A stretch of 64,000 bases of DNA from an uncultured Clostridia bacterium. Lineage in GTDB: Bacteria; Bacillota; Clostridia; TANB77; CAG-465. The stretch is taken from the NCBI GenBank assembly GCA_934130595.1, contig CAKOYF010000001.1, positions 1,966-65,965 of the forward strand, written 5' to 3'. Below the pieces are notes generated by a model. It did no database searches. It worked only from the letters and a program-made list of their open reading frames with translations, and was not told the origin of the DNA. The translations under genes and the position numbers were made by a program. This document shows, piece by piece, positions 985-59,992 of the stretch; within the stretch, counting starts at the first letter, position 1, and every line of letters begins with the position of its first letter.

Positions 985-3426
985 CTATTCATTAGAAATA
1001 ACAATTTTATCATCTACTACTTTCATAGTTACACTAGTATTGTCTTTTATTTTTCCATCAAGAATGTATTCAGCTATTTCATCTTCTATTTTAGATTGAA
1101 CAGCTCTCTTTAGAGGTCTTGCTCCATAGTTTTCGTCAAATCCTACTTTAGCAATATACTCAACTACAGATTCATCTACATTAATAGTTATATTTCTTTC
1201 TTTTAGTTTTTCTACAGATTTATCTATCATAATTTTAGCTATTTTCTTAACTGATTCTTTATCTAATTTTTTAAATACAATTATCTCATCTAATCTATTT
1301 AAAAATTCTGGTCTAAATGTTCTCTTTAGTTCTGCCATAACTTCTTCTTTGCTTTTTTCATATTCTTTACTTGAATCTTCCTTATTTGCAAATCCAATAG
1401 TTTTACTTTCAACAATATTTCTTGCACCGGTATTAGAAGTCATTATTATAACAGTATTCTTAAAGCTTACTGTTCTTCCATTAGAATCTGTAAGTCTTCC
1501 ATCATCAAGAATTTGTAGTAACATGTTAAATACATCTGGATGTGCTTTTTCTATTTCATCAAATAATACAATTGAATATGGTTTTCTTCTTATTTGCTCA
1601 GTTAATTGGCCACCATCATCATATCCAACATATCCTGGAGGTGATCCTATTAATTTAGAAACACTATGTGGTTCCATATATTCAGACATGTCTAATCTTA
1701 TCATTGAATTTTCACTACCAAACATATTTGCTGCAAGTGCTTTTGTAAGTTCTGTTTTTCCTACACCTGTTGGTCCTAAGAACATAAATGAACCAATAGG
1801 TCTGTTCTCATCTTTTAAACCAACTCTAGCTCTTTTTATTGCTTTTGCAAGTACATCTATAGCTTCATCTTGACCTATTACTCTTTCTTTTAAGTCTTTA
1901 TCTAGATTTTTTAATTTTTCAGTTTCAGTTTCTGTTAATTTAGTTACTGGGATTTTTGTCCAATTAGAGACTACTGCACAAATATCTTCTTTACTTATTG
2001 AAACTTCTTTATTTTTTTCTTGTTTTTTCCATTCGTCGTCGTTTTTCTTTATTTTTTCTTTTAAATCTTTTTCTTCATCTCTTATTTTAGCTGCTTTTTC
2101 AAAGTTTTGAGAAATTATTGCTTCTTCTTTTTCTTTAGATTTCTTTTCTAGTTCTTTTTCAAGATTTTTATAACTTTCTGGTTTTGTAAGGCTCTTTATT
2201 TTAGCTTTTGAACAAGCCTCATCTATTAAATCTATTGCTTTATCTGGTAAAAATCTATCTGTAATATATCTTTCAGATAATATTGTTGCCTCTTTAATTG
2301 CTTCATCTGTAATCTTTACTTTATGATGAGCTTCATATTTATCTTTTAATCCTCTTAATATTTCTATTGTATTTTCTATGCTTGGCTCTTCTACAATAAC
2401 ACTTTGAAATCTTCTTTCTAATGCGCTATCTTTTTCAATATATTTTCTATATTCATTTAATGTTGTAGCACCAATAACTTGTATCTCTCCTCTTGAAAGT
2501 AAAGGTTTCAAGATATTTGCTGCATCCATTGCTCCTTCTGCAGAACCTGCTCCAACAATAGTGTGAATTTCATCTATAAACAATATAACGTTTTTAGCAG
2601 ATTTCATTTCTTGTAATGCTTTTTTTAATCTTTCCTCAAATTCGCCTCTATATTTTGCACCTGCAATCATTGAAGCCATATCTAAAGAAACTACTCTTTT
2701 TCCTTTTAGAATTTCTGGCACATTGTTTTCATATATCATTTGTGCTAAGCCTTCAACAACAGCAGTTTTACCAACACCAGGTTCACCTATTAAAACAGGA
2801 TTATTTTTAGTTCTTCTACTTAGTATTTCTACAACCCTTTCTATTTCTTTTTCTCTTCCAATTACTGGATCTAGTTTATTTTGCTTTGCAAGTTCTGTTA
2901 AATCTTTACCATATTGGTTTAAAGTTGGAGTATTTCCTCCTGCTTTTGAATCTAAATTAGCTGGATCTGTATAATTTTTAGAAATTGGAGATTCTTCTCC
3001 TAATATTCTTAATAGCTCAGTAAAGATTTTTTGAGGATCTATATCTGAATCTATTAAAATTCTAACAGCTACACTGTCAATTTCTCTCATTAAAGCAAGT
3101 AGAATGTGTTCAGATCCAACATAATTTTGACCCATTCTTATTGCTTCTTTTTGACTATTTGCAATTATTCTTTTAGCTCTAGGAGTAAATTCAATTTCGT
3201 CTTCATCTACAATTGTGTTCATTGCTCCATCTATTTTTACTATTTCATCTTCAACATATTCTGTTGTAAGGCCTTGATTCTTTAGAATTGTAGCTGCTAA
3301 TCCTTCATTTTCAGCAATCAGACCATATAAGATATGTTCTGTTCCTACATATGAATAATTATGTTCTAAAGAAAATTCTTTTGCAAATTCTATAACTTTT
3401 CTAGCACTTTCTGTAAATTCGTACAT
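985..3426 (-). CDS. clpC: ATP-dependent Clp protease ATP-binding subunit ClpC
   Basis: Clp N repeats, two Walker A sites (GEPGVGKT, GPTGVGKT) and a UVR-like middle region. It is the last gene after ctsR-mcsA-mcsB. The start is moved to the ATG at 3426 because AAGGAGAG (3433-3440) abuts the ATG at 3432. Confidence 0.95.
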   Translation of the reverse strand: MYEFTESARKVIEFAKEFSLEHNYSYVGTEHILYGLIAENEGLAATILKNQGLTTEYVEDEIVKIDGAMNTIVDEDEIEFTPRAKRIIANSQKEAIRMGQNYVGSEHILLALMREIDSVAVRILIDSDIDPQKIFTELLRILGEESPISKNYTDPANLDSKAGGNTPTLNQYGKDLTELAKQNKLDPVIGREKEIERVVEILSRRTKNNPVLIGEPGVGKTAVVEGLAQMIYENNVPEILKGKRVVSLDMASMIAGAKYRGEFEERLKKALQEMKSAKNVILFIDEIHTIVGAGSAEGAMDAANILKPLLSRGEIQVIGATTLNEYRKYIEKDSALERRFQSVIVEEPSIENTIEILRGLKDKYEAHHKVKITDEAIKEATILSERYITDRFLPDKAIDLIDEACSKAKIKSLTKPESYKNLEKELEKKSKEKEEAIISQNFEKAAKIRDEEKDLKEKIKKNDDEWKKQEKNKEVSISKEDICAVVSNWTKIPVTKLTETETEKLKNLDKDLKERVIGQDEAIDVLAKAIKRARVGLKDENRPIGSFMFLGPTGVGKTELTKALAANMFGSENSMIRLDMSEYMEPHSVSKLIGSPPGYVGYDDGGQLTEQIRRKPYSIVLFDEIEKAHPDVFNMLLQILDDGRLTDSNGRTVSFKNTVIIMTSNTGARNIVESKTIGFANKEDSSKEYEKSKEEVMAELKRTFRPEFLNRLDEIIVFKKLDKESVKKIAKIMIDKSVEKLKERNITINVDESVVEYIAKVGFDENYGARPLKRAVQSKIEDEIAEYILDGKIKDNTSVTMKVVDDKIVISNE

Positions 3427-3441
3427 AAACATCTCTCCTTT

Positions 3442-4413
3442 CTATATACTACTTTTTATATATTCTGCTCTTTTTATATTTTCTTCTTCTTTTGAAAAAT
3501 TATCTTTCATATTTTTTCTAAGTGTATTTATTCCAATGTTTTCTATTAATTCTCTAATTTGCTCTAGTGAAACATCTTTTATATAATCCATATTAATTCC
3601 CATTGCAATATTAGATAATAGTTGCATTGCTTCTTCTTGAGAAATCATAGTAGCATATTTTGCAATACCATAAGATCTCATAACTTCATCTTTTATTTGA
3701 AGTTTATTTTTTAAGATTTCTCTTGCTTTTCTTTCTTGTTTTACTATATAATTTGTGACTTGTTTAACTTGTTCTATTATATCTTCCTCTTTTATTCCTA
3801 GAGTTTTTTGATTTGAAATCTGATATATAGATCCATCACCATTAGTATTTTCTCCATAAATTCCTCTTATTGAAATTCCTAGATTAGATATTTCATTAAA
3901 TATTTTTTCAAGTGCACCAATTTTTTCAAGTGCAGGTAAGTGTAACATAACTGATACTCTCATACCTGTTCCTAGACAAGTTGGGCAAGCTGTTATGTAT
4001 CCATAATCTTTTGTATATGCATATTCTATTTTACTTGAAATATAATTATCTACATTTACTATATTTTCATATGCTTTATCTATATCAAAAGCATTTTGGA
4101 AAGCTTGAATTCTAAAATGGTCTTCTTCATTAATCATTGTTGAAATTCCATTTTTTTCATCTAATATTATAGCTGTTCCATTATTTAATAGTAATTCTTT
4201 AGAAATTATATGTTTTTCAACTAGTGATTTTTTAGTAACATCATCTATATTGTCTAATTCCAATATATTATATTTGTCTTTTAAGTTTTCTTTTATATAT
4301 TCTAATAACTCTTGTTTTTGTCTATCACTCATATTATTAGTAAATCTATAACCTTTAACATTTCTGGCAAGTCTTATTCTAGTTGTAATTACTACGTCTT
4401 CGTATTTTTCCAT
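3442..4413 (-). CDS. mcsB: protein arginine kinase McsB
   Basis: ATP:guanido phosphotransferase-like sequence (ITACPTCLGTGMRVSVMLHLPAL). Its start overlaps the mcsA stop (TAATG). Confidence 0.9.
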   Translation of the reverse strand: MEKYEDVVITTRIRLARNVKGYRFTNNMSDRQKQELLEYIKENLKDKYNILELDNIDDVTKKSLVEKHIISKELLLNNGTAIILDEKNGISTMINEEDHFRIQAFQNAFDIDKAYENIVNVDNYISSKIEYAYTKDYGYITACPTCLGTGMRVSVMLHLPALEKIGALEKIFNEISNLGISIRGIYGENTNGDGSIYQISNQKTLGIKEEDIIEQVKQVTNYIVKQERKAREILKNKLQIKDEVMRSYGIAKYATMISQEEAMQLLSNIAMGINMDYIKDVSLEQIRELIENIGINTLRKNMKDNFSKEEENIKRAEYIKSSI

Positions 4414-4907
4414 TATTGCTTGCCTCCTTTTCCTTTAGATTCTATTTTTTTAATTTCATCTCTTACTACAGCAGCTTCTTCGAATTTTTCGTCTTTAATA
4501 AGTTGTTGTAGTTTTTCTTTTAATTCATCTACTTTTGAAACTGTATTTGTTTTTTCTTTCTTTATAGATTTCTTTCTATTTGTTGTTTCAATATGTCTAT
4601 TTTTTCCTTGAATTCTAGGTAGTAATTTATCTATTTCACTTTTAAATGTGTTATAGCATTCATCACATCCTAATAATCCAGTTGATTTATACTTTGAAAA
4701 AGTATAACCACACTTTTTACATTTTACTTCTTCTGGTAATATATAATCTAGATCTAAAACCATTGGTGAAAAGATATCATCAAATGAATTAAATATTCCT
4801 AGTTTATGTGCACATTCTTCACACAAGTTTAAATTTATAATATTACCATTTATATTCTGTTTATATGTAATATTTGCAATATTTTTTCCACAATTTGAAC
4901 ATTTCAT
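4413..4907 (-). CDS. mcsA: McsA (zinc-finger and UVR-motif activator of McsB)
   Basis: N-terminal CxxC pairs (CSNCGK, CEEC, CKKCG, CDEC) and a C-terminal UVR-like FEEAAVVRDEIK. Sits between ctsR and mcsB. Confidence 0.85.
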   Translation of the reverse strand: MKCSNCGKNIANITYKQNINGNIINLNLCEECAHKLGIFNSFDDIFSPMVLDLDYILPEEVKCKKCGYTFSKYKSTGLLGCDECYNTFKSEIDKLLPRIQGKNRHIETTNRKKSIKKEKTNTVSKVDELKEKLQQLIKDEKFEEAAVVRDEIKKIESKGKGGKQ

Positions 4908-4925
4908 AAAAAATTCCCCCTTTTT

Positions 4926-5372
4926 TTATATTAAATTTATAAGTATATTTTTAAACATATCCGCTCTTACATTATCTCTTTTTATTTTTTCTACCTGATT
5001 TAAACTTTTCTCAGATAAAGCTGCAGTTATTATATTAGCAGTCTTATCATCTAATACATTATATCTAAGCAACTCTCTTAAGTAAACTTCCATAACACTT
5101 TGTGACATTTTTCCACCTATGTTGTGGATAATTTTATTTATGTATTGAGATTTAGATAGATTCATTCTGCTGATTTTTATATATCCATTTCCTCCTCTTT
5201 TACTTTCTACATAAAAACCTAATTCAGGAATAAATCTGGTAGATATAACATAATTTATTTGTGATGGTACACAATTAAATTCTTGTGCTATTTCACTTCT
5301 TTTTAGCTCTACCTGCTCTGAATCTGCTATTGCTTTCATAATATATTGTTCAATTAAATCTGATAAATTCAT
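4926..5372 (-). CDS. ctsR: transcriptional repressor CtsR
   Basis: MNLSDLIEQYIMKAI... is a typical CtsR N-terminus. GGAGGAAAAAATG RBS for the ATG at 5372. The track ORF start at 5417 runs through the promoter and the CtsR operator. Confidence 0.9.
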   Translation of the reverse strand: MNLSDLIEQYIMKAIADSEQVELKRSEIAQEFNCVPSQINYVISTRFIPELGFYVESKRGGNGYIKISRMNLSKSQYINKIIHNIGGKMSQSVMEVYLRELLRYNVLDDKTANIITAALSEKSLNQVEKIKRDNVRADMFKNILINLI

Positions 5373-43549: not shown

Positions 43550-44326
43550 TTAATTTTTTATTAATCTAGCTTGAACAACAAATCTTCCATCTTTTATTGA
43601 ATAATCGCATGTAGATAAAGTTAGTATACTATCTGCAGATGAAACTTCTACACCTGTATCATATCTACTCTTTTTAGCTAAACTTGCTATGAAATCATCA
43701 TATTCAGATAAAGACTCAAATTCTGTGTCTATATAATAAAATTTTGATGCTTCTACAGAATAAACTGTAAATATTTCATATTTTTTTAGTCCATCAGCTG
43801 TTGCAAGCTCTATATATTTATGATTATTAAAGAACTCTTCTCTTTTATAATTTAAAAGTGGAGTAAATCTATTATCTGTTTCAGTATTATGACCATAAAT
43901 AATTATATTAGTCATAAGATCAGATAATTTACTTACGTCACATCTATAATCTATGAATGTTTCTCCCCAATCTTGAGTTACTCCATCTCTATCTTCTCTA
44001 TAATATCTAGTGTTATCTGTTCCTTGGAATATAGGGTAATCTATTGTAGTTCCTGGTACTTTTAACCAAGCTTTTGCATCTTTATATGTAACATTAACTT
44101 TTGAAAGTTCTTCTACTAGATTTCTTCCTTCATCCTCAGATGTAGTAACAGGCATATTTTCGTCTCCAACAAAAATATCATATCCTAGCTCTTCTCCTGG
44201 TTTTTCAAGTGAGTTGCTATTAAATATGTTATTTAATACTAAAGCTACTATACCTATTATTGCCATTATTACAATTATAACTATAAAAATTATAACATTC
44301 AAATTCTTTTTCTTATTTATCGCCAT
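43550..44326 (-). CDS. srtB: class B sortase
   Basis: N-terminal anchor, AWLKVPGTTIDYPIFQG, IIYGHN, the TLSTCDY catalytic Cys motif and a C-terminal RFVVQARL. Confidence 0.85.
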   Translation of the reverse strand: MAINKKKNLNVIIFIVIIVIMAIIGIVALVLNNIFNSNSLEKPGEELGYDIFVGDENMPVTTSEDEGRNLVEELSKVNVTYKDAKAWLKVPGTTIDYPIFQGTDNTRYYREDRDGVTQDWGETFIDYRCDVSKLSDLMTNIIIYGHNTETDNRFTPLLNYKREEFFNNHKYIELATADGLKKYEIFTVYSVEASKFYYIDTEFESLSEYDDFIASLAKKSRYDTGVEVSSADSILTLSTCDYSIKDGRFVVQARLIKN

Positions 44327-54165: not shown

Positions 54166-54354
54166 CTATTGTTTTTCTTGTTTGTCTTCTACAAAATCGT
54201 CGTCACTAAATCCCTTTAAGTCATTCTTTTTGTTTTCTCTTAGTACACAAAATATCAAATATAGTATTATACATATAATTGTTACACCTAATACTATCAA
54301 TCCATCTGTACTAAAGAAGCCACCTGTTACAGGCATACTTAAGTTGTTATCCAT
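54166..54354 (-). CDS. small single-TM membrane protein with acidic tail
   Basis: MDNNLSMPVTGGFFSTDGLIVLGVTIICIILYLIFCVL... GTGAGG RBS 9 nt upstream of the ATG at 54354; the track start at 54387 includes the RBS. Confidence 0.5.
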   Translation of the reverse strand: MDNNLSMPVTGGFFSTDGLIVLGVTIICIILYLIFCVLRENKKNDLKGFSDDDFVEDKQEKQ

Positions 54355-55456
54355 AATTTTATACCTCACTTTATGGCTATATATCATATATTCAATATAT
54401 ATTCTTCAAGTATTTAATTAATTATTACCATCTACCTTTTTCGTAGTGATTGCTAAACCATATAAATTTTAAAATTAAGCATAGCAAAAATTATTTCAGC
54501 TTAAACTTAGCCAAAAATTCATACCACGCAACATCCATTATGTCATAATAGTAACACATCCATACTTTATATAAAGTTACTACTTAAGAAATTAAGTTTA
54601 ATTTCTTTATAATAGTATGAATTTATATGATTATATACTTAATATATAATACTTTAAGTAGATTATACATATAATATTACCTCTTTTTAATAATACTATA
54701 CAATCCATTTTACATTTAATAATTTAAATGTTTTTTCGTAGATATTTCAAAAACTATCATCTTTAAATCTATCGAGCTCTCCTTTGATAGAAACGTATCT
54801 ATTCCATATATAATAATTTTCTCGTTTATTTAAATTTAATAATTTTTTCTACCTACATTTATCAACCTCTCTCTCTTAATACACGAAATATTAATATTCA
54901 TAATATTTTTAATATATATTTGTTTGATAAAATAACTATTTAACTTCCGTACATCTTTTTCCTTTTTAATATAATACCTAAAATCAAATTCAAATATATA
55001 TTTTTTCAAAAAGATTTTAATGTTTCCTTATACTTATTAAAATCCTATACTCTAAATTTTTTCCCACACCTTTTATTCCATTTCATACTAATGTGGAGCT
55101 GTCGTTTTTTTACTAATAGCATTGGGGGAACTATATTTTTTTACGCAGCCAATCATAGACTATAATATCTTAATCTGTATCTAAAAAACTATTTAAAATA
55201 ATTTTCTATTACATAATAATCATATCAACTTCTTTAGCCTCATAATTATCGACTAGTTTCTTTATTTCTTTGTTACCTGAATTCTAACACAATAAAATTT
55301 CAAATTCAATACGCTTTTTTACGAATTATGTAGTCTGTAATACAAGTATTTCTTTTAAATATTCCTTTGTTACATATTTGTATAATTTATATAATATGTA
55401 ACAGCTGTAGTTTGTAACTATTTCTGGTTTTCCTTTATATTTAGGCATTTTGAACT

Positions 55457-55494
55457 AAAAAAGAACACTAATATTTTTTTCATATTAGTGTTTC
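55457..55494 (-). terminator. Rho-independent terminator after the TED-like gene
   Basis: Stem gaacactaatat/atattagtgtt(t)c (55463-55474 / 55482-55494) with U6 on the minus strand. Confidence 0.8.
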
Positions 55495-55501
55495 TTTTTT
55501 T

Positions 55502-56887
55502 CTATAGAGAATCAAATATAATCTCTAAGTCAGTCTCTGCATCTTTTGTTATCTCAAATTCACGATTACTATTCTCTAGGAAATATTTTTCTGGCACATC
55601 ATATACTTCGATATAGTATTTACCAACAGGTAGAACAAAGCCATATTCTGCACCTGAGTTTTTCATGTCTTGAATAAGATGGTGATTTTCGTCATATATT
55701 TTATAACTTACAATTTCTACGTCACTTCCATCTTCTGTTTTAAAATTTAAATTAACATTTCCAACATCAACATTGTCATATGCAGCTACGACATCTTCAT
55801 ATATTCTCTCTTGTGGCTCTAATAATACATATTTTTTCTTAGAATTTAATTGCTCATAAATCTCACTTCTTAAGAAATATTCAGTAGAGGTCACCTTGCA
55901 TTGTGTAAAGACTTTTTCTGTACCAATAATTTTTATATAGAAAGTCTCTCCATTTTCTACACTAGTTACTTTTTCTCCATTCTCATTTATAGCAAAAGCT
56001 TGACTACCTTCAACATGACTTACAACATCTATATTAACACTAGGATTATATGCATCTCCCATTATTTCTTTAGTTGTATTGTCTGTTATAGTATAATATG
56101 CTATTGGTCCTACTAAACTCTCATTACCATCAACAGTCATTTTTGTTGTATCATCTTTAACTATATAATCTATACTAATCTCATAAGGATTCTCTATTGC
56201 CAAATTATATAGTTCTTTTGCTTTAGCTACTACACGCTCAACCATATCGCTATACTTCTCTTCACTTGGTTTTATTGCGTCTAGAGAAAATTCACCAATT
56301 GCCATACTGTACTTTTCATCAGATACAAGTGCATAAACAGCTAGTTGAGTCGCTATATATGCCTCTTCCTCATTATTTAATCCAAGCTCTTGATAAGTAA
56401 CATTAGGATATCCATTTATTAATATAGCAGACATTTTTCCTTTTGCAAAATAACTTGTTTGTGTCATTTCACCTTCTGGTATAACATCATATCTATATGT
56501 TAATGAATATGCTACTTTATCATCTAACTTAGTTTGAGCTATTTTTATATATGAGTTATTAATTGTATCTATCATGTACTTGGTTAAATCCCCTGATTCG
56601 ATATTTTTAGTTAATCCTTTTAATTGCTTTTCTAATTTTACTCCTTCTTGTCTAAATTGGTTTGTTTCATTATTTGAATGAATTAAGCAAAATATTCCAT
56701 TATACGCTGCAATGGACAATATAATTGCAATACCAATATATTTCCAAGAATTAATCTTTAACTTTTCTTTAAAAGGTAATTTATCATATTCCTCAAGTTC
56801 TTTTAAACGAGGCTCCTTATACATAAACTTTCTATATGCCTTTTTGATTCTTGTAATTATACTCAACTTCTTCTCATTGGATTTCAT
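55502..56887 (-). CDS. type-II membrane-anchored surface protein with a thioester-domain-like head (Cys replaced by Ser) and one CnaB-like domain
   Basis: ATG at 56887 behind GGAGGAATAATT; the track start at 56959 lies inside its own promoter. TM WKYIGIAIILSIAAYNGIFCLI. The head aligns with the neighbouring adhesin (VAYSLTY vs VAYCIDY; AYIATQLAVYA vs AYMATQMALWE). C-terminal GKYYIEVYDVPEKY CnaB-like unit. No LPXTG. Confidence 0.75.
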   Translation of the reverse strand: MKSNEKKLSIITRIKKAYRKFMYKEPRLKELEEYDKLPFKEKLKINSWKYIGIAIILSIAAYNGIFCLIHSNNETNQFRQEGVKLEKQLKGLTKNIESGDLTKYMIDTINNSYIKIAQTKLDDKVAYSLTYRYDVIPEGEMTQTSYFAKGKMSAILINGYPNVTYQELGLNNEEEAYIATQLAVYALVSDEKYSMAIGEFSLDAIKPSEEKYSDMVERVVAKAKELYNLAIENPYEISIDYIVKDDTTKMTVDGNESLVGPIAYYTITDNTTKEIMGDAYNPSVNIDVVSHVEGSQAFAINENGEKVTSVENGETFYIKIIGTEKVFTQCKVTSTEYFLRSEIYEQLNSKKKYVLLEPQERIYEDVVAAYDNVDVGNVNLNFKTEDGSDVEIVSYKIYDENHHLIQDMKNSGAEYGFVLPVGKYYIEVYDVPEKYFLENSNREFEITKDAETDLEIIFDSL

Positions 56888-56930: not shown

Positions 56931-56959
56931 ATTATATCATATTTTTTATGTAAATTCAA
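56931..56959 (-). promoter_or_regulatory. sigma-A type promoter of the TED-like gene
   Basis: TTGAAT (56954-56959), 17 nt, TGaTATAAT (56931-56936) on the minus strand. Confidence 0.7.
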
Positions 56960-56992: not shown

Positions 56993-57021
56993 AAAAAAAT
57001 AAGGTAGCCTAAGCTACCTTA
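56993..57021 (-). terminator. terminator between the two surface-protein genes
   Basis: Stem taaggtagc/gctacctta (57000-57008 / 57013-57021) followed by U7 on the minus strand. Confidence 0.8.
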
Positions 57022-57046
57022 TTTTATTTTTAGTTTCGTTGTATTT

Positions 57047-59992
57047 CTAGTTTTCTTTTTTAGTAGATAATACTTTCATTAAAGCATATCCTGAAATACT
57101 TACTAAAGCTACTACTAGTACTATTGTCATATCTGCACTTAATAATCCACCAGTTTGTGGTAATCTTTCTTCTTTGTTGTAAATTACTGTTTTGATTATA
57201 TCTTCGTTTTCAACTTTGAACATGTATGTGTTTTCATCTTTTATATATCCGTTTGGAGCTTCTACTTCTTTGAAGTAATATGTTCCATAAGGGATTTTCT
57301 TAGATAAAGCTTCACCATTTTCGTCTGAAACGATTGTATCAACAACTTCACCTTGTTCATTTGTTATTTCAAATTTAGCGCCTGCAAGTGGAGTTTTAGT
57401 TCCTTCTATTAATTTGTATATTAATAGTTGTCCTTTAACATAGTAGTTAACAACATTTTCGATTACATTTTGTCCATCTTCTACGATTGTAAATTCATGG
57501 AATGAAGTGTCTATTGCTATGCCTTCTGGAGCTTTAACTTCTTTGTAGTAATATGTTCCTTTTTCTAGCTCTTTAGATTCTGCAATACCTTCTTCATTTG
57601 TAGTCATTTCATCTATTTTTTGTTTATTTGAATCGTATATTTCGAAAGTAACACCAGCTAGTGGTTCATTGTTTTCATCAACTTTAATTATTTTTAGTTT
57701 ACCATGTTTTAGTTCGTTGATTACTGTTTTTTGTATTACTTGATTATTTTCAGTTAATACAAATTGATGTTCGCTTTCATCCATTACAACATTGTCTGGA
57801 GCTTTAGTCTCTTTGTAGTAATATGTTCCTAGTGGTAATTCTTTAGAGCTTGCTTTACCATCTTTGTTTGTAATGATGTGATCTACGACATTTTTGCTTT
57901 CGTCTAAGATATCAAATTCTACTCCATCAAGTGGTGTATTATTGCTATCTATTTTTGTTATTTGTAAAGTTCCTTTTGCAACTTTATTAACAACTTTAAC
58001 TGATACTAATTTTCCATCATTTGTGATTTCAAATTTGTATTCGTTGCTGTCTATAACATATCCATTTGGTACTTCTATTTCTTTATAGTAGTATGTTCCT
58101 GGTGTTAATTCTTTACTTACAGCAATACCATTTGCATCTGTTATTACTGTTTCAACAACTTTTTTATTTTCATCTAAGATATTGAACTTAACATTTGCTA
58201 TTGCTCTGTCATCATCACTTACTTTAGTTATTTTTAAAGAACCTTTAATTTTTTCATTAACGATATCTTTTCTAACTATTTGATCTTGTGTTTCTACTTT
58301 AAATTCATATACTCCACTATCAATTTTTACATTGTCTGGAGCTTCTATTTCTTGATAATAGTAAGTTCCTAATGGTAAGTTTTTAGCTCCTGCAAGTCCT
58401 TTTGCATTAGTTGTTAATGTTAATATAACATTTTTATCTGCATCTAAAATGTTGAATTTTACACCTTCAATTGGTGTTTTATCTTCATCTGTTTTTACTA
58501 TTAATAAGTTACCTTTACATCTTTCGTTTGTTACTGTTTGATAGAATGTTCTATTTACTTCATCAACTTTTAAAGTGTAAGTTTTAGTATCCATTATATA
58601 TCCTTCTGGAGCAGATATTTCTTTGAAGTAATATGTTCCATAGTCTAAGTTGATACTAGCTTTACCTTCTTCATTAGTTGTTACTCTTCCAACAACTTTA
58701 TTGTTGCTATCTTGTATCTCAAAAGTTACGTTTGCTAATGGTTTGTTTGTATCATCTACTTTTGTTATAACTAATCTACCAGTTATTCTGTTGTTTACAA
58801 ATTTAACTTCTGCAGTTTGATTTGCTACAACAGTTACATTTTTGCTTTTTTCAGTTATTGTATAACCTTGTGGTGCTGATACTTCTTCTAATATGTATTG
58901 TCCTTGTGGTACTTTGTAGAAGTTTATAATACCATCATCACCAGTTGTTACTTGACCGTAACTTTTTCCTGTTGTGTCTTTAAGTTCAAATGTTGCTCCT
59001 GATACTGGTTGATCATCTTGGTCAACTTTAACTAGTTTAATTTTTCCTAAAGTTGTTACTTTTTCCCATTCTATTGTTAATTCTCTTTCAGCTGTATTTG
59101 GTTCAGTTTCTATTTTTACATAGTCTTGAACTGTCTCACCTGGTTTTGTATAAATAGCACCAACTTTTCTGTCTATATCTGTTGTAAATTTAATTTTGAA
59201 AGTTTTGCTATCTTCTGATGAGCTCATTCTTACATATACAGAATCTCCACTAGATAATGATGTTTTTTCATTACCGTTTGCATCTGTTATTTTAGCAGAT
59301 GCAGGTGCATTTATTAATGATGCTGTTATAGATTTAACTATAGCAGATTGTGTTCCTTCTATTGTTACAGTATAAGGTCCAATTAAAGCATCATTACCTA
59401 AATAACTTAAACCAGCTTGGCTGTTATCTATAACCATTGTAGGTACTGTTGTATATGGATTAGCTTCAGCCATAGCAACTAATCTTTTTGCAGCAGCTAC
59501 TGATTTGTTATAGAAATCTTCTTTTCCTGCTTTAGGACTTACATTTTCTACTCTAAATATCAATCCTGATTTTTGAGATTCACCTGTTCTGTTCATAACT
59601 TCCCATAAAGCCATTTGTGTTGCCATATAAGCTTCATCTTCGTTATCGCATCCTAAAGCTGCAGGTGAATTGTTTGGGTAACCATTCATTAATATAGCCA
59701 TACCTTGGTCAGATAAATAGCTTCTAAATGTCATAGTACCGCTTGGTGCTGGACATGTGTAGTCAATACAATATGCTACATCTCCACCTAATGTTGCTCT
59801 ACTATACCAAACATTTTTTCCATTTCCTGAATCATAACCTACAGATACTACTCCTGGTGAATAGTATTGTAATTGTTGTGCTGTTGCTTTAACAGCAAAT
59901 GGACTAAATTCTAGCATAAGTAAAGCTACAAGTAAAACCATACTAGTAATTTTAAGTTTAAGTCTTTTAACGTTTTTAAATATTTTTACCAT
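57047..59992 (-). CDS. LPXTG-anchored adhesin: thioester (TQXA) head plus seven CnaB/SpaA-type repeats
   Basis: Signal peptide. AYCIDY Cys motif and ATQMALWE TQxA(L)W motif. Seven units of roughly 90 aa with G.L.I.K.D...PL.G..F.I.D / GTYYYKE..AP.GY / V.NE. C-terminal LPQTG plus TM plus KKEN. ATG at 59992 is 9 nt from GGAGG; the GTG at 59998 is too close. Confidence 0.88.
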   Translation of the reverse strand: MVKIFKNVKRLKLKITSMVLLVALLMLEFSPFAVKATAQQLQYYSPGVVSVGYDSGNGKNVWYSRATLGGDVAYCIDYTCPAPSGTMTFRSYLSDQGMAILMNGYPNNSPAALGCDNEDEAYMATQMALWEVMNRTGESQKSGLIFRVENVSPKAGKEDFYNKSVAAAKRLVAMAEANPYTTVPTMVIDNSQAGLSYLGNDALIGPYTVTIEGTQSAIVKSITASLINAPASAKITDANGNEKTSLSSGDSVYVRMSSSEDSKTFKIKFTTDIDRKVGAIYTKPGETVQDYVKIETEPNTAERELTIEWEKVTTLGKIKLVKVDQDDQPVSGATFELKDTTGKSYGQVTTGDDGIINFYKVPQGQYILEEVSAPQGYTITEKSKNVTVVANQTAEVKFVNNRITGRLVITKVDDTNKPLANVTFEIQDSNNKVVGRVTTNEEGKASINLDYGTYYFKEISAPEGYIMDTKTYTLKVDEVNRTFYQTVTNERCKGNLLIVKTDEDKTPIEGVKFNILDADKNVILTLTTNAKGLAGAKNLPLGTYYYQEIEAPDNVKIDSGVYEFKVETQDQIVRKDIVNEKIKGSLKITKVSDDDRAIANVKFNILDENKKVVETVITDANGIAVSKELTPGTYYYKEIEVPNGYVIDSNEYKFEITNDGKLVSVKVVNKVAKGTLQITKIDSNNTPLDGVEFDILDESKNVVDHIITNKDGKASSKELPLGTYYYKETKAPDNVVMDESEHQFVLTENNQVIQKTVINELKHGKLKIIKVDENNEPLAGVTFEIYDSNKQKIDEMTTNEEGIAESKELEKGTYYYKEVKAPEGIAIDTSFHEFTIVEDGQNVIENVVNYYVKGQLLIYKLIEGTKTPLAGAKFEITNEQGEVVDTIVSDENGEALSKKIPYGTYYFKEVEAPNGYIKDENTYMFKVENEDIIKTVIYNKEERLPQTGGLLSADMTIVLVVALVSISGYALMKVLSTKKEN
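57050..57163 (-). other. cell-wall sorting signal (LPQTG, hydrophobic segment, basic tail)
   Basis: ERLPQTGGLLSADMTIVLVVALVSISGYALMKVLSTKKEN at the C-terminus of the adhesin. Confidence 0.85.
57173..59047 (-). repeat. seven intragenic tandem repeats, period about 270 nt (CnaB-like modules)
   Basis: The protein repeat register is about 90 aa. At DNA level the GTYYYKE-encoding block (ctttgtagtaatatgttcc and variants) recurs near 57276, 57545, 57815, 58085, 58355 and 58625. Confidence 0.85.

Follow-up and report, generated by a model that had tools for sequence, protein, structure and literature searches.

Covalent adhesion by bacteria is based on the reactive Cys-Gln bond of the thioester domain (TED). 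A 64,000-nucleotide stretch of contig CAKOYF010000001.1 from an uncultured Clostridia bacterium, hereafter the window, encodes a protein that has kept the TED fold and lost this bond. The gene lies on the minus strand at 55502..56887 (ATG 56887-56885, TAG 55504-55502), and its product of 461 amino acids, which we call the Ser-TED protein, is a type II (N-in, C-out) membrane protein. Its ectodomain consists of a Class II TED and one CnaB-like domain and is a duplicate of the head of the neighboring thioester adhesin. With Ser at the position of the thioester Cys and Lys at that of the bond-forming Gln, it is a TED-fold protein and not a thioester protein. There is little room for doubt that it forms neither a thioester nor a canonical Ser-Gln ester, and it is most simply a de-activated paralogue. 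We consider it moderately probable that the protein is a binding module of the cell envelope that works reversibly and non-covalently.

A thioester-domain fold without its cross-linking residues

The Ser-TED protein begins with a basic cytoplasmic tail (residues 1-49; 56741..56887, minus strand), for which AlphaFold2 predicts helices at residues 10-22, 25-35 and 39-45 with a local confidence score (pLDDT) of 76-80. A single transmembrane (TM) signal-anchor helix follows at about residues 50-69 (56681..56740, minus strand), recognized from the hydrophobic stretch YIGIAIILSIAAYNGIFCLI and placed by AlphaFold2 within a helix spanning residues 47-73. Direct reading of the protein sequence found neither an AxA cleavage site nor a lipobox; a cleavable signal peptide and an LPXTG motif are both lacking, and the C-terminus ends in ...IIFDSL. 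An N-terminal membrane anchor with one TM helix and no sorting signal is what a first-pass annotation, made from the DNA letters, had proposed, and the topology is confirmed here.

From 53 homologues AlphaFold2 produced a model of the protein whose mean pLDDT is 88.3. After helices within residues 10-45 and the long helix at 47-73 come a disordered linker (73-85), a mixed alpha/beta domain (93-372), in which strands 326-346 and 349-371 make up a long beta-hairpin, and a beta-sandwich (375-460). The mixed domain has the Class II TED fold, without either of the bond-forming residues (residues ~93-372; 55772..56611, minus strand). Foldseek against the PDB matched the model to the Bacillus anthracis TIE protein BaTIE (6FWV, E 2e-22) and to the Enterococcus faecium EfmTIE86 TED (6FWY; TM-score 0.72 normalized to the target, root-mean-square deviation 4.6 over 300 columns), which are the founding Class II TED structures (PMC6194298). 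The Ser-TED family profile matches 6fwv_A at E 2e-39. The Pfam TED family PF08341 also matches the protein (37.4 bits against a cut-off of 22, E 3.7e-9) over residues 143-219; this match begins after Ser128 and is therefore uninformative on the Ser position, for which the PDB profile alignment was used instead. The region is TED-like, as had been supposed, and no other conserved Cys stands at the thioester position. The beta-sandwich (residues 375-460; 55508..55765, minus strand) was assigned as a CnaB/SpaA-like domain without the isopeptide triad from a weak Pfam SpaA match and from the profile alignment to the CnaB domains of BaTIE.

The protein was compared with the Class II TEDs of TIE proteins, namely BaTIE (6FWV), EfmTIE86 (6FWY), SaTIE and pLS20 TIE/p34. 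It shares with them the beta-barrel, the three-helix bundle and the inserted beta-sandwich with its long P-Q hairpin, as well as the YxΦζ strand, the GYP loop and the EAYxATQ helix, and it has the TIE domain order of TED followed by CnaB-like domain. Unlike the TIE proteins, it has Ser128 for Cys, Lys351 for Gln, Tyr for Trp and Phe for the isopeptide Lys, and it possesses a signal anchor with a 49-residue cytoplasmic tail, one stalk domain and no LPXTG motif.

The thioester of characterized TEDs links the Cys of [YFL]CΦζ to a Gln that lies elsewhere, within the weak ΦQζΦΦ motif of strand Q; the TQxxΦW motif contributes a Gln and a Trp that adjoin the thioester bond but are dispensable for its formation (PMC6194298; PMC4450167). 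The pair is Cys71-Gln266 in BaTIE, about 195 residues apart (PMC6194298), and Cys68-Gln256 in pLS20 TIE (PMC8092201), and these Cys and Gln residues are the only universally conserved residues of TEDs (PMC6194298). The profile alignment to 6fwv_A sets Ser128 opposite Cys71 (chain residue 40) and sets Lys351, the middle Lys of SKKKYV, opposite Gln266 (chain residue 235, in KVQNT). BLASTP against the adjacent adhesin (E 9e-24, 25% identity over 368 amino acids) places VAYSLTY opposite VAYCIDY and likewise Lys351 opposite the Gln of TVQDYV, and aligning the protein by MAFFT with eight orthologues of the adhesin and three Bacillus TIEs again puts Lys351 in the bond-forming Gln column. The Ser128 codon is TCA at 56504..56506, and the Lys351 codon, placed by these three independent alignments, is at 55835..55837 (both minus strand). 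The Ser-TED motif reads YSLT where TEDs have [YFL]CΦζ, and column 351 of the family is occupied by K36, T7, N3, H2 and Q1. Two proposals of the first-pass annotation, that the protein is a paralogue of the adhesin head and that Ser has replaced the thioester Cys, are borne out by these alignments, and both peptides that it had quoted are present.

The TQxxΦW motif reads ATQLAVY, with Tyr for Trp (residues 180-185; 56333..56350, minus strand, from the family alignment). Thr180 and Gln181 are invariant in the family, as is Tyr185 at the Trp position; the substitution of Trp by Tyr had been seen correctly from the DNA. The Gln of this motif is retained, as had also been stated, but it is not the thioester partner, because the bond-forming Gln belongs to strand Q, where this protein has Lys351. 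Across the family, no conserved Cys or His was found in the ectodomain and no invariant Gln other than Gln181. In the CnaB-like domain, 45 of 48 sequences have Phe (Phe382) in the isopeptide Lys column, and the column of the catalytic Glu reads K26/E14/Q6, which leaves only Asp459 of the triad. All three kinds of residue that underlie TIE self-crosslinking, the thioester Cys, the bond-forming Gln and the isopeptide Lys, are gone. Without the Cys a thioester is chemically impossible, and without a Gln at the strand Q position a canonical Ser-Gln ester has no acyl donor.

A Ser-Gln oxoester had been suggested for this protein. It would join Ser128 to the invariant Gln181 or to a register-shifted Gln at position 352 and would be an analogue of the thioester that is stable or slow to react. 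Ser128 and Gln181 are indeed both invariant, the TQ Gln of TEDs is immediately adjacent to the thioester and forms a hydrogen bond with the backbone of the Cys (PMC6194298), and Gln is found at column 352 in 13 of 49 members. A sister group of Ser-type proteins, described in the last section, keeps Ser together with the canonical Gln and the Trp in 43/43 sequences, so Ser-Gln chemistry may exist in the class. In the family of the window protein, however, the canonical partner position is Lys351, with K, T, N or H among the members, and column 352 faces the opposite side of the strand and carries Gln in a minority only. Neither a His nor any other obvious candidate for a general base is conserved. 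None of the characterized TEDs uses the TQ Gln as its acyl donor (PMC6194298; PMC4450167), and a Ser128-Gln181 ester would be without precedent. Exchange of Cys68 for Ser leaves a Class II TED adhesin inactive and non-functional (PMC8092201). The Thr-Gln ester domains of Clostridium perfringens Cpe0147 and of VafE repeats, which like TIE proteins belong to Gram-positive surface proteins, share only the idea of a hydroxyl in place of a thiol. A Cpe0147-type domain is an Ig-like repeat and not a TED, with its Thr/Ser and Gln on the first and last strands, and its ester formation needs an acid/base/nucleophile triad together with buried acids (bioRxiv 10.1101/2025.03.26.645365). Neither the His (or Glu)/Asp triad nor the buried acids are conserved in the Ser-TED protein, and the partner Gln is also absent. 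For the window protein we therefore set the oxoester aside as highly improbable.

Conservation of the Ser-TED family and its probable function

A homologue search of 5.8 billion proteins yielded 53 Ser-TED clusters, mostly of 455-470 amino acids and 30-55% identical, all from uncultured Clostridia in gut metagenomes and metagenome-assembled genomes (MAGs). Ser occupies the Cys position in 52/52 homologues that cover the site, and Tyr127, GYP and ATQLAxY are likewise present in all 52; the former active-site region is the best-conserved part of the protein. The Ser128 codons are of the TCN type only (TCA 13, TCT 9, TCC 1). Universal Ser combined with synonymous codon drift indicates that the residue is fixed in the clade and is not a mutation of one strain, a possibility that the first-pass annotation had raised as a way in which its view could fail. 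The ratio of nonsynonymous to synonymous substitution (dN/dS) for the Ser-TED gene in close pairs is 0.12-0.24, which indicates purifying selection on the protein. Every gene of the informative pairs has a saturated dS of ~1, so the rate comparisons draw solely on dN and on dN/dS from close pairs and do not extend to allelic exchange or replacement at the locus.

A binding role could be accommodated by the residues that remain. The residues found at column 351 (K, T, N, H and Q) are all able to hydrogen-bond a Ser hydroxyl, and a polar, hydrogen-bonded Ser-X pair may have replaced the covalent link between strand C and strand Q. The conserved cleft formed by YSLTY, GYP and EAYxATQLAxY would serve as a reversible, non-covalent binding site, and a single stalk domain on a membrane anchor would place that site at the interface between membrane and wall. 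With only one stalk domain the TED should lie within or below the wall and not beyond it, which makes a host adhesin unlikely. The ligand would probably be an amine-bearing moiety of the envelope or of a ligand, as for the Cys-bearing relatives, or else partner proteins; an envelope component or partner proteins are more likely targets than the host. Thioester-less paralogues that keep their fold and act non-covalently include complement C5, some insect TEPs and the bacterial YfaS/MagD-type alpha-2-macroglobulins. These complement and alpha-2-macroglobulin proteins may be the closest analogy, and they are an analogy only, their fold and origin being unrelated to those of the Ser-TED protein.

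Several points weigh against a binding module. Ligand binding is deduced solely from the conservation of the former active-site cleft, and the cleft motifs are also conserved in the adhesin and may reflect constraints of the fold alone. Ser128 is invariant despite a variable partner column, and a simple hydrogen-bonding role does not fully explain this. The assignment of Lys351 to the bond-forming Gln position rests on sequence alignments and predicted secondary structure, and Class II TEDs often have no obvious Gln motif (Walden et al. 2015, PMC4450167). The Ser-TED gene is also the fastest-evolving protein gene of its neighborhood, which is compatible with low functional constraint: between the window and the related locus L004, dN is 0.40 for the Ser-TED gene, 0.12 for the adhesin and 0.05-0.17 for the other flanking genes, and in the closer genome pairs (window/L004, L005/L006 and others) the Ser-TED gene has 3-5 times the dN of the adhesin and about 2-8 times the dN found for the remaining flanking genes. 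Finally, a frameshift breaks the Ser-TED reading frame into two in a pair of MAG loci (L015 10001-11267 and L016 10001-11402); this too is compatible with low functional constraint and could represent pseudogenization in that lineage or homopolymer assembly errors in AT-rich MAGs.

Some of these observations would also fit an inert scaffold or decoy, a reading listed in the first-pass annotation. Such a protein would be an intact but silent duplicate of the adhesin head that acts as a spacer or shield in the envelope and has no specific ligand. The loss of every reactive and crosslinking residue, the highest dN of the locus, the frameshifted copies and motifs that are common to the adhesin and possibly determine its fold are all what such a protein would be expected to display. 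Selection on the protein is nevertheless evident from the close-pair dN/dS, and Ser128, Tyr127, GYP and ATQLAxY do not vary among sequences that are only 30-55% identical. The gene has moreover kept one syntenic position across lineages in which the housekeeping neighbors are 64-91% identical. We regard the inert scaffold as possible, if unlikely, and prefer the non-covalent binding module.

The cytoplasmic tail bears on a different proposal, that of a transmembrane receptor whose ectodomain senses a ligand or engagement of the adhesin and signals through the tail. The tail carries a recognizable family motif, K.K..YRKFMY.E....E.EE.DK.PFKE, with a column identity of 0.53-0.54, about the ectodomain average; it is predicted to be helical at the pLDDT given above, and the gene has a promoter-like site and terminators of its own. 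The tail is conserved in most members of the family, but it is missing from P0022, P0024 and P0027, which have few residues before the TM helix, and in the sister group P0065, P0068 and P0074 also have few residues there and P0064 a tail of ~25. Because these members of the family and the sister group do without a long cytoplasmic tail, a receptor role is weakened. Neither Pfam nor NCBIfam holds a family that matches the tail, and among the Ser-TED contexts examined no sigma factor, kinase or regulator gene is adjacent to the Ser-TED gene. The receptor-type membrane module that had been suggested may hold as a membrane module; a signaling function is improbable.

Gene neighborhood and flanking sequences

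At least 14 loci share the order glucosaminidase, an ATP-binding cassette (ABC) transporter of three genes, the LPXTG thioester adhesin, Ser-TED, a stretch of ~1.1 kb without open reading frames (ORFs), a small membrane protein, Sua5, Adk, MAP and ribosomal protein genes. The synteny of adhesin and Ser-TED is kept even by members that are just 33-40% identical. In the window the adhesin gene lies at 57047..59992 (minus strand) and, according to Pfam and its sequence, encodes a canonical LPQTG adhesin with a Class II TED (AYCIDY, ATQMALW, VQDYV) and seven SpaA/CnaB domains. The adhesin is 981-983 amino acids long, and the LPQTG motif is followed by a TM segment and a basic tail. Both the Cys (TGT in 7/7) and the bond-forming Gln are invariant among the adhesin orthologues. 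A sortase gene with a TLxTC motif (43550-44326, minus strand; Pfam Sortase E 9e-13) lies ~13 kb from the adhesin gene and is likely to encode its anchoring enzyme. Two further observations concern related loci: in L005 (2950-7440) and L006 (2388-6876) the genes for the ABC permease and the adhesin are separated by ~4.5 kb of extra sequence that is absent from the window, and L036 (6044-6754) has the same N-terminal Ser-TED match as L015 and L016.

In five MAG loci the Ser-TED gene has been relocated to a position 15-36 nucleotides 3' of a gene for a membrane-anchored Transglut_core protein (L007 9051-9959, L008 5297-6202, L009 8932-9840, L010 8931-9842 and L011 5281-6099). This neighbor is ~300 amino acids long, has the Cys/His/Asp motifs and a PDB relative, 9crn (E 3e-15); tblastn for a transglutaminase-like protein within the window found no homologue. 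The gene immediately upstream of Ser-TED is always one of two, encoding either the Cys-Gln thioester adhesin or the Transglut_core membrane protein. Thioester adhesin and transglutaminase chemistries both end in Gln-Lys isopeptides. One could therefore imagine the Ser-TED protein as a partner in acyl transfer, either as an amine-donating target or regulator of the adhesin or the transglutaminase-like enzyme, or as a hydrolase with a Ser128/Lys351 dyad, and the presence of Lys at the former Gln position in 36 of 49 members would suit such a role. This Lys is not invariant, however, being T, N or H in about a quarter of the members, and it would be buried in the former thioester pocket. The pairing with the adhesin may merely reflect tandem duplication, and the sister-group loci L031-L033 have neither an LPXTG adhesin nor a transglutaminase-like gene adjacent to their Ser-TED genes. 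We find an acyl-transfer partner very improbable and retain the non-covalent binding module. Wall hydrolase genes are found near both the Ser-TED family and the sister group; this proximity is suggestive of an envelope role and is a hint, not independent evidence.

An AGGAGG sequence lies 7 nucleotides 5' of the ATG of the Ser-TED gene, and further 5' there is a promoter-like site, TTGAAT-17-TGnTATAAT (56931..56959, minus strand), known solely as a match to the consensus. The sequence here is AT-rich (27% GC), and its promoter-like matches are as frequent as expected by chance, 45 against 43.8 in shuffled sequences, so the promoter is supported by its position alone. A hairpin with a T-run resembling an intrinsic terminator separates the adhesin gene from the Ser-TED gene (56996..57025, minus strand, recognized from the sequence). 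The promoter-like site and the terminator of the first-pass annotation are thus both present. A second terminator-like hairpin with a T-run lies just 3' of the Ser-TED stop codon (55457..55495, minus strand), and the locus alignment shows this post-stop hairpin in orthologous loci despite their differing sequence.

The ORF-less stretch between the Ser-TED gene and the next gene (54388-55501, minus strand) is 1.1 kb long, has no ORF of at least 60 amino acids and has a GC content of 21.6%. It is 68-77% nucleotide-identical across species whose Ser-TED proteins are only 33-53% identical, with orthologous stretches in L004, L005, L006, L012, L013, L015-L017, L026, L028, L030, L035 and L044. It opens with a near-invariant promoter-like sequence, TTGAAT-17-TGTTAGAAT, at about 55309-55281. 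RNAalifold predicted 12 helices with compensatory changes in 22 of 73 pairs, in comparison to 10.9±2.0 in shuffled alignments (0/500 reach the observed value) and 5-7 in slid controls, the structure having been derived from the same alignment that was used to assess it. Many G-U pairs fit transcription in the direction of the flanking genes. Rfam gave no match to the stretch at gathering thresholds and two chance-level matches in E-value mode, and a metagenome scan with the RNA motif recovered the same synteny only, plus chance matches of 19-26 nucleotides. The stretch is a candidate for a lineage-specific structured noncoding RNA or for a long leader of the small-protein/Sua5/adk/map operon. 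In every syntenic locus, Sua5 is directly preceded by the gene of a conserved single-TM protein of 62-75 amino acids (54166-54387 in the window, minus strand), for which no significant family match was found; its gene is preceded by a conserved promoter-like ACTTGAAG...TATAAT.

The wider Ser-type class and its significance

When a profile of the TED part was compared with 1.84 billion representative proteins, only 344 matches were found at E ≤ 1e-3. Of the 150 best relatives, 55 carry Ser in the Cys column, all of them without an LPXTG motif, whereas 49 have Cys and 24 of these 49 have LPXTG; the rest of the 49 are mostly fragments. Full-length Ser-type proteins number 43, of which 41 have an N-terminal TM segment and one of the other two is lipoprotein-like. 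Among these best relatives, loss of the Cys accompanies a switch from wall to membrane anchoring.

The Ser-type relatives include a sister group of ~45 clusters of 410-445 amino acids (P0064-P0070 and P0191-P0230), which are ~50% identical to the head of the window adhesin. Like the window protein they have an N-terminal TM anchor, a TED followed by a CnaB-like domain, Ser at the Cys position and no LPXTG motif. Unlike it, they keep the canonical Gln (QDY/QDF/QHY) and the Trp: AYS[ILMV]DY, ATQ[MI]AxW and this Gln are found in 43/43 full-length sequences that cover the column. Sister-group genes occur as paralogue pairs, tandem, adjacent or a few kilobases apart, at L031 (5656-6948 and 8001-9332), L032 (8001-9317 and 9353-10633) and L033 (595-1866 and 6067-7311), and instead of an LPXTG adhesin gene a GH25-LysM lysozyme gene lies just upstream in L031 and L032. 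As a separate observation, genes for an RT-Cas1 fusion, Cas1, Cas2, Csm6 and Cas10, at 2855-5002 and 7466-9866 in L033, lie between and beside the two Ser-TED genes of that locus.

Judged by its residues, the sister group, with Ser, Gln and Trp all kept, would fit the Ser-Gln oxoester hypothesis and is a better candidate for it than the window protein. A literature search found no description of Ser-type or Cys-less bacterial TEDs, nor of the sister group, which is not proof of absence. It is conceivable, if decidedly improbable, that the Ser-type TEDs together constitute an undescribed membrane-tethered class that participates in or regulates transglutaminase-type acyl transfer, with the window protein as an acceptor, a self-target or a Ser/Lys-dyad enzyme and with the sister group forming a Ser-Gln oxoester. 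Were this true, a Ser-Gln oxoester inside the TED fold of the sister group would be a new kind of protein crosslink, and the Gln-retaining proteins are the right ones in which to test for a Ser-Gln ester in a TED.

The Ser-TED family represents a TED fold that has been stably inherited without both of its defining residues in uncultured gut Clostridia. Not every protein annotated as a "TQXA/TED domain protein" should accordingly be taken for a covalent adhesin. The family suggests that the TED fold has a second function in the cell envelope, one that is non-covalent.

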